This document shows positions 40,441 to 61,504 of a stretch of 64,000 bases of DNA, one piece after another. How positions within the stretch are numbered: position 1 is the stretch's first letter; every line of letters starts with the position of its first letter. The notes beneath the pieces were generated by a model. The model was given only the letters and a program-made list of their open reading frames with translations, was not told where the DNA came from and searched no databases. This stretch comes from Eledone cirrhosa (lineage: Eukaryota): positions 87,420,001 to 87,484,000 of the forward strand of contig OZ024745.1 in assembly GCA_964016885.1 (NCBI GenBank). The letters are read 5' to 3'. The position numbers and the translations under genes were made by a program.

Positions 40441-41825
40441 TTGACTCTGTATTCCGTTTATCTTTCACCGAAAGTGATTTTTCATTGCATCTCTTCTTTC
40501 CATGATATCCGGATTACATTGAGTTCTTCATACGGATTGGACACTACCGTAAACTCTTGGTAGATTTATCTACATATATATATATATATATATGTATGTA
40601 TATATATATATATATATATATATATATATATATATATATATATATATATATAGTAATAATAATACATTTGAAGACTAAAATCCAACGAGGGCTCGATAAG
40701 GAAAATATATATCAAATATATAAGAACCGTAGAGCAAATATTTATTAAAATAACAGATTAAAGTTTAAGCAAAGAATCGCTGCTTTCACCCTTAACGGGA
40801 TCTTCTGAAACTAACAAAGTCAATCTGTAAACGCAGAACTGGATATTTCAAAAAACGTTGCAACCGGAGGAAGACAGGAAGACGATACTTTGGTTCGTGG
40901 TAACGTTCGCTGGCAAAGAACGGGAAAAAACGAATAATACGTCATTAATAGGAGCGGTGAAAAACAATTACGCGCAAAGACAGAACCACGTTTATGGTAT
41001 AAAAGAGGTCGTAGACTAATGTTCTCTTAGGTGGTGCATAGAGTCGTTCTCTGGCAATGAACGAAAAAACGAAGATAATAAGTCAAATGTGGAGCGTGGA
41101 GAACAATAGCACGCAAAGACAAAATCACCGCCAATAGTTTCAAGCAGCGTCTTAACATGCATACCCATTCTTTTCGTTTCCCTCTTAGAAGGAATAGGAC
41201 GTCACTTTCAGCTTATATCTGGAGTCTAAAAGACAACCACACCCAATATAAGTTACACTGGGAGATCCTAGCTAGGGCTAGATCGTATGACGGAAATAAA
41301 AGACCATGTGACCTCTGCGCCGCTGAGGCCCTGGAAATACTCTACGCCACAGACCACATCTTAAACAAAAAATCTGAGGCAATTTCGGCTTGTAAACATA
41401 AATTGCACAACACTTTCCTGTATTACAGCCCCACGATATACCCTAACGGATAGCACGATCTATACGTGGATATTTTACGTCTTGATGTGGGAGCTAAGTA
41501 TATGTTTGTTTATTCCTTTACTTATTTGCATAGGTAAGTATATATTACCCGTATGTTTTGTGAAGCTAGTTAGAATTTTGGTCTCCTAGTTAGAATTTTA
41601 GTCTACAACTTCTGCTATACCATTTACGTGGTTTTGTCTTTGCGTGCTATTGTTCTCCACGCTCCACATATGACTTATTATCTTCGTTTTTTCGTTCATT
41701 GCCAGAGAACGTCTCTATGCACCACCTAAGAGAACATTAGTCTACGACCTCTTTTATACCATAAACGTGGTTCTGTCTTTGCGCGTAATTGTTTTTCACC
41801 GCTCCTATTAATGACGTATTATTCG

Positions 41826-41886
41826 ATTAAATAAAGTACCAGTAATGAACTGGGTAATTGCTGGCCTTGTGCCTAAAGTAGAAACA
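41826..41886 (+). mobile_element. 5'-truncated SINE with an 8-bp TSD, inserted in one PLE repeat arm
   Basis: TSD ATTATTCG at 41818-41825 and 41887-41894. The other arm (~40930) shows the empty site. Confidence 0.9.
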
Positions 41887-42012
41887 ATTATTCGTTTTTC
41901 CCCGTTCTTTGCCAGCGAACGTTTCCACGAACCAAAGTATCGTCTTCCTGTCTTCCTCCGGTTGCAACGTTTTTTGAAATATCCAGTTCTGCGTTTACAG
42001 ATTGACTTTGTT

Positions 42013-42063
42013 AGTTTCAGAAGATCCCGTTAAGGGTGAAAGCAGCGATTCTTTGCTTAAACT
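42013..42063 (+). ncRNA. Hammerhead-like motif with variant core CAGAAGA
   Basis: agttt CAGAAGA tccc-gttaa-gggt GAAA gca...tgc TT aaact. Confidence 0.6.
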
Positions 42064-42246
42064 TTAATCTGTTATTTTAATAAATATTTGCTCTACGGTT
42101 CTTATATATTTGATATATATTTTCCTTATCGAGCCCTCTTTGGATTTTAGTCTTCAATTTTATTATTATTACAATATATATATATATATATATATATATA
42201 TATATATATATATATATATATATATATATATATGTGTGTGTGTGTG

Positions 42247-43270
42247 TACGGCGTAATTCGGGCTGTCTGTTAACAAACAAACCGAACATTATAATAAATG
42301 TTCGGTAAACCCATACGTACATATATATATGTGGTGTATGTATGTATATATATATACATACTACTGTACGTCTGTATACATATATGTATGTACGTATACA
42401 TACTTATATTTAAGTATCAGCCGTACTAAGAGTGTGAAATGAAATTTCGTTTCATTCTTTTCCATTTATCGTTTTCGGTACGTCCGGCCAACTAACTCAC
42501 TCGATATGCAAATTAGGCTGCTCAGCCGTTAATATGCATAAGGAAGGTATGTACTTTCAAATGTTCAATCATCTGACAGGAAGGTACGCGATGCTAACGA
42601 TAGCTAATAAGCTTGAAACTAGTTCATCGTTCCTTTGTTAGTGTTGAACAAAGGGGCAACGATGGTTGCCGAACACTGTACGGCGTAATTCGGGCTGTTT
42701 GTTTAAAAACAAACCGAACATTATAATAAATGTTCGATAAACCCATACGTACATATATATATATGTGTGCATGTATGTATATATATATACATTCTACTGT
42801 ACGTCTGCATACCTATATGTATGTACGTATACATACTTATATTTAAGTGTCAGCCGTACTAAGAGTGATAAATGAAATTTCGTTTCATTCTTTTCTATAT
42901 ATATGTATATATATATTTCTTTACATACATTTCTTCTTTTTCTCCGTCTTTCTTTGTAACTGTGCTTAACACTAAATATTTATAAACACTTCCCTACCAA
43001 GCCAGCTTCCGACCTTAATGGTTGCTATATTTATGGTACGTAAAAATTATTTATAAAACTGGTTATTTATTGTATTTTATCTGACGAAGGCATGCCATAT
43101 TTTTAATATGGTATCCCTGAAATATGTATAATGAAATAAATATGGTTTTATAAATATAGTTTCCATTTGTTTAATATCGTATATCTACTCCAAAAACTTG
43201 TCGAGTGCTTTATATCAGTTATAAAATATTTACTTGTTGTAACCCAACAATTTAAAATAAAACTTTTGCA
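42247..43270 (+). mobile_element. PLE-terminus-like unit with a ~220-bp direct repeat (42247-42471 / 42678-42893)
   Basis: Direct repeat followed by an HHR; flanked by (TA)n. Confidence 0.6.
43073..43138 (+). ncRNA. Type I hammerhead ribozyme
   Basis: tattttat CTGACGA aggcatgccatatt..aatatggtatccct GAAA tatgta TA atgaaata. Confidence 0.75.
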
Positions 43271-43399
43271 TATATATAAATCTATATCTATATATATATA
43301 TACATGTATATATATATATAAATACATATATATATATATAAATACATATATATATATATATATATATATATATATATATATATATATATATATATATAT

Positions 43400-58703: not shown

Positions 58704-59349
58704 TCGATTCTACGAAGCAGATTTTCCTATAGTCCTTTAACATCGAATTTCTTCGTTTATTGATTTAGATCGTGTTGTATGAGTAGTCAAGAACTGTACA
58801 CGTCATCGGTATTTCTAGCCACTCCTGGTTGCCCACTTCTTGCTTCCTCTCGTTCCCCACCTGTCAATCAAAATTTCTTCATGTATCAGAATTACTACTA
58901 TGGTGTGAGAGGGGCTGTAATCTTGAACGGCTGGCATCCCTTCGACGACCTCATTGCCCCTAGGTGCCTTATTCTACATCGGTCAGGTACACACCAGCAA
59001 TTATGCTGTATGCGGCATTCATCATAAATAATGTTTTGCGGGAATTTAAAAAAACAAGAACAATCATGGGGATATTTAGCGTAACATTTGTAGGACACAG
59101 CCTTAGGATACACTCCGCCATACATATTTCGAAAAGAAAAGGAAAAAGGGAAAGAAAGAACCTGTAGCCAGAACGTTTTTAAAAAACATTTAAAAAAAAA
59201 AGCTTTCAACAGCCATTCAAACGGAGGGGCTACATCAAAGGTGTTATCAACAAATAGACCCAATTCTATTCTCACACACTGGACTCAGGGGAGGGTGCGT
59301 AGCCAAGACGCCGCACACTTATATAGGCAGATGGGAAAAGAAAACTCCA

Positions 59350-60124
59350 TGGAAAGTCATCCGTACCCCCACGAATACATGCTCAGACAAATACATCGAC
59401 CCATGCATGCACTCGTGCTCATGCATGTCTGTGTGGGCACGCACACATACCGCGTGCTCAACACCGGATGCATATACTTGAGGAGTTCATCCCCCCCTCG
59501 CCCATCCGTTCCCCCACGTGCCGCTGCGCAGCTGGTGCACACAGTATTGCATGAGACAACGCATTTGAAGCCTTGACCCAACCTGATCACGTGGCGGTGT
59601 GAGTCCGATGGTGTCTGCACAATATGCCTACATGTTACGGCAGCACAATATCCCTGCAATAATCGCATGTAGCCTGTGTGGCCCATATACACCATTCCAT
59701 GTTGCCGATATACACACGCACACAACGCATGCCGCTGGCACATTACATCATACATACACTCCACGTGCATTCCATATATATCATTGTGAAGCACATACCC
59801 TTTATATTCCATGTATACACACAAACCCATGCACATCTCATATATACTTTTATGAAATGGATGTTACACATAACCACAATATATATAACTTGTTTGTGCA
59901 CGCACGCACGCACGGCCCACACCTATCTCATGCAATACTGTGTGCATCATCTGCGCAGCGGCGTGTGGGGGGACGGGTGGTGGGGGATACTCATCAAGTA
60001 TATGCATCCGGTGTTGAGCACGCGGTATGTATGCGTGCCCACACAGATATGCATGAGCACGGGTGTGTGCATGCATGGGTCGATGTATTTGTCTGAGCAT
60101 GTGGGGGTACGGATGACTTTCCAC
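59350..60124. repeat. Inverted repeat with ~200-bp arms
   Basis: 59350-59556 is inverted at ~59925-60124. Confidence 0.85.
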
Positions 60125-60338
60125 ACAGCGCAATACAGAACTATAGACTTCTAGTAATACCTTATAGCCTCCCTAATTCTATCCCACTGGAAGATGTCTA
60201 CAACTATCTTATCAGCCCATAAATCAATCATACCTTCGCTGTTACCTACTACTTCGGACCAAGGATTTATATCTCTCATTAGCACTCACGATCTCTAACA
60301 GACGAGCCTAATTTTAAGTACATTATTTTATTACTCCT

Positions 60339-60487
60339 CATGCTTTCCAGCATAGTTACGTCCCTTTACGATCTGAGTTGAAATCCCGCCGAGGTTGACT
60401 TTGCCTTTCATCCTTACGGGGTCGATAAAATATAAAGTACCAGTAATGCACTGGGAAATTGCTGGCATTGTGCCTAAAGTAGAAACA
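60339..60487 (+). mobile_element. 5'-truncated SINE with a 17-bp TSD
   Basis: TSD ATTATTTTATTACTCCT at 60322-60338 and 60488-60504. Confidence 0.92.
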
Positions 60488-61097
60488 ATTATTTTATTAC
60501 TCCTTGAAATCTCACTTTCCACTTATTATTCTTATTATTCTTATTATTATTATGAACATCTCAATATAGCCCTAATAGTAGTCATCATGTTCTATATACC
60601 TACCATGCACATTTTACTACTTTACTATCTTCTGTTATTTATACACGATTTGTTATTGATGCTGTAAAAACTAAACCCCCACGATTCGAACTAACAATCC
60701 CTACCTTTAGTATAGGCCACTTAAATAACGAATCTACAACTCTATTTAACACCACATAAAAACTATCATCATCACTAAATTAATCAAACGAAAACGTTTA
60801 TCTGTCAAATAATAAACAAATAAAAAGTAAATCTCCAGTTTATTGCTTGAATACCTACAGCGCAGAGGATATCTCATAAATTCTGTCTCCAAGTACATCT
60901 TAGTGGTTACTGTCATCTAGTCGCTACCCTATCACTATATCTAATGTACCCTATAGCAGTTTTCACATGTAAATTCCATACATCTGTATCATATCAGTCT
61001 GTTTAACATGCTAGATTCTCCATTATACTCTATCTCTTACATTGATGTTATTATTTTAATTGAATGCTATCTAGTTATTTTATTTTATTATTGATAT

Positions 61098-61265
61098 CAG
61101 TATCGGTAGAGGGTCTGACATGCTTTCCAGCATAGCCAAGTCCCTTTACAATCTGAGTTCAAATCCCGCCGAGGTTAACTTTGACTTTCATCCTTATGGG
61201 GTCGATAAAATAAAGTACCAGTAATACACTGGGTAATTGCTGGCCTTGTGCCAAAAGTAGAAACA
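61098..61265 (+). mobile_element. SINE with an 11-bp TSD
   Basis: TSD ATTATTGATAT at 61087-61097 and 61266-61276. Confidence 0.92.
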
Positions 61266-61504
61266 ATTATTGATATTATTGTTCAGGTTTAATACCACAC
61301 TTATATAAAATCCATGCCTTATGTATTTTCTTCATTTCACCCGCTCCGATGAAACAGACTGGTTATAAACAAAGTATTGGCGGTCGATTGGCGCAAAATC
61401 AGGCGTATAGCAAACTCTAGACCTGCCAGATCAAATAAACAATTGTCAGCAATGTGAATAAAGCCCTTGTTGTATAGCGAACCATGTCAATCTTCTTTCT
61501 TGTA

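Follow-up and report, generated by a model that had tools for sequence, protein, structure and literature searches.

A SINE and ATT-inserting L1-group LINEs as a probable partner pair in Eledone cirrhosa

The window considered here, a stretch of 64,000 nucleotides from Eledone cirrhosa (assembly GCA_964016885.1, contig OZ024745.1, positions 87,420,001 to 87,484,000 of the forward strand), is AT-rich eukaryotic DNA in which simple repeats are abundant. Between approximately 7.9 and 36.8 kb it carries an array of retrotransposons lacking long terminal repeats (non-LTR elements) whose members are spaced by (ATT)n runs, and both within this array and beyond it lie copies of a short interspersed element (SINE). 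On balance, this SINE appears to be copied in trans by the protein of the second open reading frame (ORF2p) of the neighboring ATT-inserting long interspersed elements (LINEs), which belong to the L1 group and likely to its Tx1 clade. SINE and LINE are therefore regarded as a probable, as yet unproven, partner pair, one that by analogy would work like a stringent SINE/LINE pair combined with target sharing of the kind described for SINEU and Tx1-Mar elements.

SINE copies and their ATTATT insertion sites

When complete, the SINE is 184 nt long and non-coding. Six young copies are present, with pairwise identities of 90-97%, differences of 1-6% from the six-copy majority sequence and target site duplications (TSDs) of 8-17 bp. 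Two of these lie on the minus strand of the array, each flanked on both sides by (ATT)n runs, one near full-length (15591..15770) and the other comprising the full 184 nt (25940..26123). The remaining four are dispersed on the plus strand between 41.8 and 61.3 kb: the last ~60 nt of the element at 41826..41886, situated within an inverted-repeat arm and differing from the six-copy majority at 2 of 61 positions; a full-length copy with a tandemly duplicated 5' end (49691..49893; A box 8/9, B box 7/7); and two further 5'-truncated copies at 60339..60487, where the loop sequence discussed below reads ATTGT rather than CTTGT, and at 61098..61265. Truncation of the 5' end, clear in three dispersed copies and slight in one array copy, is, like a duplicated 5' end, a hallmark of target-primed reverse transcription. 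The duplication, an exact 23-bp tandem repeat of the SINE 5' end at 49691-49736 (+), likely arose from a re-priming or template-jump event. Where the truncated SINE meets its TSD, at 41823-41830 (+), the two are joined through TCG, a short stretch of microhomology to the SINE core.

A preliminary description of this DNA held that the TSDs of the dispersed copies begin with ATTATT, and this is borne out by all four left copies and by three of the four right copies, the fourth reading ATTAGT at 49894. The TSDs that it located are exact at 41818..41825 and 41887-41894 (8 bp, ATTATTCG), at 60322..60338 and 60488-60504 (17 bp), and at 61087..61097 and 61266-61276 (11 bp), while that of the duplicated copy, with its left copy at 49675..49690 and its right copy beginning at 49894, is imperfect as described (4 bp exact, 16-17 bp with three mismatches). 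An empty counterpart of the 8-bp site is also present, as claimed, the other arm of the inverted repeat carrying a single ATTATTCG at 40931..40938 (minus strand); after removal of the SINE and one TSD, the two arms align without a gap and are identical at 526 of 537 positions. Because the opposite arm holds this empty site, ATTATT was present in the target before insertion. Outside the array ATTATT occurs at 90 of 67,580 positions on both strands (0.13%), and around each dispersed SINE copy at 2-5 of 2,002 positions; against so low a background, four ATTATT starts in four insertions lie far beyond chance, small as a sample of four is. No extra ATT units separate the SINE body from the TSD in any of the four dispersed copies, and because the TSD directly follows the body in each, a fixed start of reverse transcription is suggested.

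The three copies that retain the head of the element match the A box at 7-8 of 9 positions and the B box at 7 of 7, as scored with box patterns that are standard for such elements, and an internal TTTT is absent from all four copies checked; the SINE is presumably transcribed by RNA polymerase III. As to a tRNA origin of the head, ARAGORN returned no match, and Rfam returned none in the window and none for one full copy (E values up to 5). As for a named superfamily or family, such as CORE, V, Deu/Nin, Meta or Ceph or the octopus elements OK, OR1 and OR2, motif searches of the searchable supplementary files of PMC4824008 and PMC4758252 revealed no matching element, and full-text searches of the literature with the SINE motif retrieved unrelated papers only. 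Analysis with nhmmer yielded five further weak matches, comprising four older relics and one tail copy within a LINE 5' untranslated region (UTR). Among the relics are an older, longer relative at 63.8-63.9 kb (63792..63939, +), with ~29 extra body bases and the tail layout of the SINE (the loop again at -21, followed by ATTAGT), and a degraded SINE-type tail at 56420..56462 (-), with its loop likewise at -21; the other two, at 54473-54607 (+) and 5461-5542 (-), keep the central core and have no recognizable tail.

L1-group elements and the shared 3' tail

Sequence comparison places the array LINEs in the L1 group. They display a two-ORF layout in which ORF2 matches the Pfam domains Exo_endo_phos, indicative of an apurinic/apyrimidinic endonuclease (APE), RVT_1 and zf-RVT. 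The reverse transcriptase (RT) of ORF2 matches L1 ORF2p with an E value of 5e-43, as against 6e-21 for R2, and the best matches of its endonuclease are L1 endonuclease entries, in a comparison of homologs that was narrow, CR1, RTE and L2 entries being absent among the matches. A CCHC knuckle (CX2CX4HX4C) is intact in three of four ORF1 sequences and has its last Cys altered in the fourth, and the atlas look-alikes of ORF1 are CCHC and RNA-binding clusters, which are taken as a lead only; ORF1 of the Tx1 clade combines an RNA-binding domain with a CCHC knuckle. The preliminary description had called these elements Tx1. Of that label, membership in the L1 group is supported by the RT and endonuclease comparisons, whereas placement in the Tx1 clade itself, as this is described in the passages concerned of PMC4494074 and PMC4640811, is a probable fit. 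No named Tx1 reference occurs among the ORF2 homologs retrieved, the names of which are either 'hypothetical' or domain-level, with generic LINE-1 or RT labels in the atlas, and the passages concerned of PMC9004415 contain no mention of ZCCHC3. Among named relatives, that from Argonauta hians comes closest to the LINE protein (68% identity), which points to a likely octopod host. For protein P0005, a 69%-identical ORF2 relative is attributed to a bacterial metagenome-assembled genome, and probably represents animal DNA in that assembly.

Five elements or fragments of this type lie on the minus strand of the array. All five run into (ATT)n at their 3' ends, and the three intact 5' ends also abut (ATT)n, all of these being in the one array. 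Element h (9649..15530) is full-length, with a CCHC ORF1, an ORF2 with APE, RT and zf-RVT domains and one in-frame stop, and a 3' end of the type designated A. Element b (26160..32049) is of the D type with an internal ORF2 deletion, and element a (32083..36790), whose 5' end is approximate, has lost several internal segments and carries a 3' end of the D type. The 5'-truncated 3' fragment at 7878..8225 carries an A-type end followed by (ATT)9. Element f (15789..21803) is a full-length chimera, as revealed by sliding identity, in which a D-type 5' UTR and ORF1 are joined to an A-type ORF2 and 3' end: over the former it shares 81-93% identity with element b, over ORF2 and the 3' UTR 93-98% with element h, and the changeover falls near 19.5 kb, where ORF1 meets ORF2, amounting to an ORF1 swap between lineages within one array.

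The three tails quoted in the preliminary description occur in the sequence as written (LINE copies ending at 32083 and 9649), and the polarity it reported is likewise found: the minus strand holds the (ATT)n ends of the LINEs and both array SINEs, the plus strand the (TAA)n ends of the Dong/R4-like elements. Both array SINEs are co-oriented with the L1-group LINEs (2/2), and both kinds of element have an (ATT)n 3' repeat. The gapped alignment on AAAG proposed earlier is not the best one, as MAFFT aligns 14 ends without a gap. Counted from the ATT tail, the motif CCTTGTG occupies exactly positions -22 to -16 in five of five LINE ends and in six of six SINEs, one of which has a mismatch, and the CTTGT loop within it starts at -21 in all 14 ends (five LINE, six young SINE and three older tail copies), a register for which the leading ATC of two of the five LINE ends was taken, post hoc, as the first tail unit. 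Over the last 22 nt, a width chosen after the motif was seen, SINE and LINE ends match without gaps at 14-15 positions (64-68%), SINE and the three Dong-like ends at 6-7, and the A-type and D-type LINE ends at 19. In 20,000 dinucleotide-shuffled versions of the LINE 3' end, a match of 14-15/22 arises once in the fixed register and 13-16 times over 11 offsets. When 107 starts of ATTATT runs were scored, the top eight were SINE or LINE ends and the others reached at most 11/22. Likewise, a weight matrix derived solely from the five LINE ends, without their tails, ranks the SINE tails 7-11 and 19 among 127,958 positions, a ranking led by the five training sites; at widths of 26 and 30 nt the SINE tails rank 8-16. 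The two kinds of element also overlap in divergence, SINEs being 90-97% identical pairwise and A-type LINE ends 93-96%, albeit with few copies, and also bearing on age are the single stop of ORF2 in element h and the insertion of one SINE into an arm only 2% diverged from its partner.

The shared motif is predicted to fold into a hairpin around a CUUGU loop, and the stem that closes this loop reads GGC/GCC in the SINE, AACC/GGTT in A-type LINE ends and GCC/GGC in those of the D type. RNAalifold returned the same three-pair hairpin unprompted, with double-sided changes at two of the three pairs (GC/CG and GC/AU), and the named four-pair structure has a covariation score of 0.487, as compared with at most 0.208 when it is slid along the alignment, a score reached by none of 500 shuffles. 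CTTGT occurs at 136 sites in the window; 12 of these have a stem of at least 3 bp, and 11 of the 12 belong to the SINE and LINE elements. Within an 89-nt context, the hairpin pair probability is 0.63-0.90 in four of four LINE ends. Loop-specific, stem-tolerant recognition is established for L2 elements of zebrafish (PMC4176376).

A SINE-type tail copy is also found at the opposite end of a LINE: element h has, within its 5' UTR at 15356..15381 (-) and 49 nt upstream of the ORF1 ATG, a CTTGT hairpin after which an ATT remnant follows. This copy matches the SINE at 17 of 22 positions, above any LINE 3' end, and its unanchored match is reached by 0 of 1000 shuffles. Related segments with a TTTGT loop are located 31-32 nt upstream of the ORF1 ATG in element f (21610-21635, -) and element b (31855-31880, -), and the 5' UTR segments of h and f are homologous (0/500 shuffles). 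On the simplest reading, a LINE ancestor captured an upstream SINE end in an ATT array, while the transfer may alternatively have run in the reverse direction, or the segment may be a second protein-binding site. Two other derivations were rejected. The 5' UTR as a whole is not SINE-derived, since only the tail of h matches (f, 426/500 shuffles; b, 89/500), and 15356-15530 is not a separate truncated LINE 3' end, as it matches the 5' UTR of f (0/500) and no 3' UTR (205/500 and 100/500). A hairpin of 12 bp, its loop 4 nt long, is predicted in the D-type 5' UTRs just upstream of the TTTGT segment (21630-21660, -, and 31875-31905, -).

Mechanism and competing explanations

In the proposed mechanism, ORF2p of the ATT-inserting elements would bind SINE RNA at the CUUGU loop, 21 bases before the ATT tail. 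A nick at an ATT site, presumably made by the APE domain, would then allow the (AUU)n end of the RNA to pair with the freed strand and prime reverse transcription, such that the spacing between the loop and the start of copying would be constant; as every insertion would restore ATT repeats, arrays could grow. A more far-reaching version is offered tentatively and is, as a whole, doubtful: a tRNA-headed SINE carries a Tx1-derived tail, its CUUGU pentaloop serves Tx1 ORF2p as recognition signal and also sets, like a ruler, where reverse transcription starts, the 5' UTRs of Tx1 elements represent captured SINE ends, parts are exchanged within self-renewing ATT arrays, and a target-specific Tx1 lineage has thereby dispersed an old octopod SINE family to ATTATT sites.

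How specific the target choice is bears on this mechanism. The preliminary description spoke of a candidate sequence-specific pair; the match to ATTATT stands, but a need for a specific endonuclease does not follow, given that RNA-DNA pairing at priming would have the same outcome, and the term is an overstatement on the data at hand. Pairing of the (AUU)n RNA end can yield the ATTATT match because the match covers exactly the bases complementary to the primer. Downstream of the TSD start, two sites are degenerate (ATT)5 (13/15) and two consist of two units only (9/15). Since the SINE tolerates such minimal two-unit sites, while all five LINE copies of the window sit in the long ATT array, target specificity is likely loose and partly a matter of RNA-DNA pairing.

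Several results weigh against the partnership. With respect to the target, no (ATT)n match exists upstream of the nick, the match being confined to 6 nt downstream: the 12 bases preceding the TSDs agree with (ATT)4 at 2, 5, 5 and 6 positions, the background mean being 4.1 over 84 sites. With respect to the tail, the resemblance reported earlier is retained in the anchored 22-nt comparison but not when the last 40 nt of the SINE are aligned locally and unanchored to the LINE 3' UTRs, an alignment that lacks significance (155 and 104 of 1000 shuffles). Infernal models of the five LINE ends, with or without structure, detect none of the six SINE tails (E values up to 10), and in the weight-matrix rankings unrelated sites stand above all SINE tails, one at 22 and at 30 nt and two at 26 nt. 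Accepted SINE/LINE pairs of bivalves share 35-61 bp at 72-95% identity (PMC11481361), and the present tail, 22 nt at 64-68%, falls below them. AATAAA is present in the LINE ends and absent at the matching place of the SINE. As regards the hairpin, only about two independent compensatory events are represented among three lineages, whose relatedness inflates the covariation test, and 7 of the 13 distinct rows have a disrupted fourth pair; the pair probability in the 89-nt context is 0.04-0.10 in three of four SINE copies and 0.65 in the fourth, and 46-nt tails fold no better than their shuffles (0/8, z -0.98 to 1.25). The comparison of ends covered the Tx1-type and Dong-like ends of the window and the flank of a Penelope-like piece. 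Finally, a search of genome contigs for independent loci gave no hit to the exact SINE core, and 19 pattern matches to ORF2, of which none was confirmed.

These weaknesses leave room for a different driver of the SINE, namely a LINE outside the window that belongs to the RTE, CR1, L2 or I group and likewise ends in an ATT repeat; ATTATT would then follow from pairing of tail and target, and the Tx1 likeness would be convergent or accidental. Such a driver is judged unlikely, though it merits serious attention. In its favor, unanchored tests of the Tx1 match fail, RTE and CR1 families have recently been active in Octopus vulgaris (PMC13282606), and SINEs driven by RTE elements have a 3' microsatellite that tracks the first TSD bases and a T stretch ~10 nt upstream (PMC6007223, PMC13295347). 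At the four sites described here a T is found at -9 in all, a T at -1 in three and a run of four Ts at -6 to -10 in two; however, the T at -9 was picked post hoc and is a weak signal because 33 of 84 background ATTATT sites share it. Moreover, a driver from another clade leaves unexplained the -21 register, the compensatory stem and the SINE-type copy in a Tx1 5' UTR, and the 1,189 open stretches of at least 30 aa in the window yielded no RT remnant of an RTE, CR1, L2 or other APE-clade LINE, a result that applies to the window and does not address the rest of the genome.

A second alternative, that an older or sister Tx1-type lineage donated the tail and the A- and D-type elements of the array are relatives of the true partner, departs from the array-partner explanation only in the family that supplies the protein, and is considered improbable. 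In its favor, 19 of 22 positions agree between A and D ends whereas the SINE matches them at only 14-15/22, the stem pair that is G-C in the SINE is C-G in both LINE types, the tail already exists in the older, longer SINE relatives, and one octopus species has more than a few active families of the Tx1 class (PMC13282606). Yet the A- and D-type stems also differ from one another while the loop is kept, L2 elements tolerate stem swaps (PMC4176376), and the ages of the SINE and the A-type elements overlap. Mobilization by the Dong/R4-like elements of the same microsatellite is very improbable indeed. Dong-like copies do share the (AAT)n/(ATT)n array, and Dong elements target TAA microsatellites (PMC3812793), but their polarity is opposite to that of both array SINEs and to that at all four dispersed sites, their last 22 nt match the SINE at only 6-7 positions, and local alignment of the SINE to two Dong 3' ends in both orientations is not significant (271-824 of 1000 shuffles).

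Related systems and the surrounding array

The closest parallel is provided by SINEU-1, -2 and -3 and the Tx1-Mar elements of crocodilians (Kojima, 2015; PMC4494074), in which SINE and LINE likewise have a common target, insert in the same orientation and are of overlapping age, the SINE frequently lacks its 5' part, and SINE-like sequence is found at the 5' ends of some Tx1 families; the SINE-type end in element h's 5' UTR resembles these SINEU-like heads. SINEU elements differ in having snRNA heads, poly(A) tails and a Mariner target, and no LINE with the SINEU 3' end is reported as found in the passages concerned, whereas the SINE described here has tRNA-type boxes, an (ATT)n tail, an ATTATT target and a 3' tail match. 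Kibi, Koshi and the crocodilian (TTCC)n/(TTTC)n Tx1 families are similar in their APE-type, two-ORF organization and simple-repeat targets, (TC)n for Kibi, (TTC)n for Koshi and (TTCC)n or (TTTC)n for the crocodilian families; in the passages concerned, however, (ATT)n is not listed as a Tx1 target and no SINE partner is given. A conserved loop on a variable, compensated stem, followed by a short repeat or poly(A), is also seen in the L2 pairs of eel and zebrafish and in maize ZmSINE2/3 with LINE1-1_ZM (PMC4176376, PMC3747384), although these pairs share tails of ~50 nt or more and have longer stems. RTE-driven SINEs, with their Tn-TA signature, are comparable in their dispersed insertions and in the agreement of the TSD start with the 3' microsatellite, and differ in a microhomology of 1-2 bases, as opposed to six fixed here, and in a T stretch ~10 nt upstream, where only a weak T is seen here (PMC6007223, PMC13295347). 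Dong, of the R4 clade (PMC3812793), uses the same microsatellite, and Dong-like copies occur in this array, but on the opposite strand, with a restriction-like endonuclease and with no tail match to the SINE.

SINEs make up ~11.6% of an Octopus vulgaris assembly (PMC13282606). Within the open-access literature, to which the search was confined (subscription journals and Repbase/Dfam lying outside its scope), neither an octopus SINE with a Tx1 partner nor an (ATT)n-targeting Tx1 family was found, nor was a partner LINE named for octopus SINEs. SINE tails derived from L1-group elements are rare, L1-clade tails being listed for only 3 SINEs among 58 pairs, and the five mentions of Tx1 in that source all fall outside its pair table (PMC3747384); the sole SINE-Tx1 partnership found described rests on shared targets, with no shared tail (PMC4494074). 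If true, the shared covarying loop would constitute a testable RNA recognition signal for Tx1-type ORF2p, endonuclease specificity could be separated from RNA-DNA pairing as the basis of target choice, and the 22-nt ATT-targeting module might be of interest for the engineering of site-directed retrotransposons.

Apart from the L1-group elements and SINEs, the array contains three Dong/R4-like pieces on the plus strand with (TAA)n ends. The principal one (21846..25519) has RT and restriction-like endonuclease motifs, a (TAA)n tail and a polarity opposite to that of the L1-group elements; a second (8226..9594) is 5'-truncated with an (AAT)n tail; and the third (25558..25924) is a short 3' fragment with 92% identity to 9221-9609. 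The segments 9221-9594 and 25558-25924 were also considered as Tx1 5' ends, a possibility ruled out by their identity as Dong-like 3' ends on the plus strand. Between 7851 and 36790, two unrelated retrotransposon types accordingly occupy a single (ATT)n/(AAT)n repeat and are oppositely oriented, an arrangement that recalls TRAS and SART in telomeric repeats. At 8225/8226, 5'-truncated Tx1-type and Dong-like pieces abut head to head, with no ATT repeat at the junction.

The edge of the array, near 7.82-7.85 kb, is a degenerate ATT/ATC microsatellite, and just beyond it an 18-bp minisatellite of 44 copies (6229-7025) grades into a degenerate TGG-rich repeat. On the other side, the translation of ~36800-37400 (+) resembles the end of a Penelope-type GIY-YIG endonuclease, a tentative, motif-based label. 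Long inverted repeats, located at 1621-3426, 38322-40439, 40592-42233, 43385-44653, 51225-52719, 55782-57320 and 59350-60123, have arms that are 87-99.8% identical and frequently bordered by (TA)n, and are similar to foldback elements or miniature inverted-repeat transposable elements.

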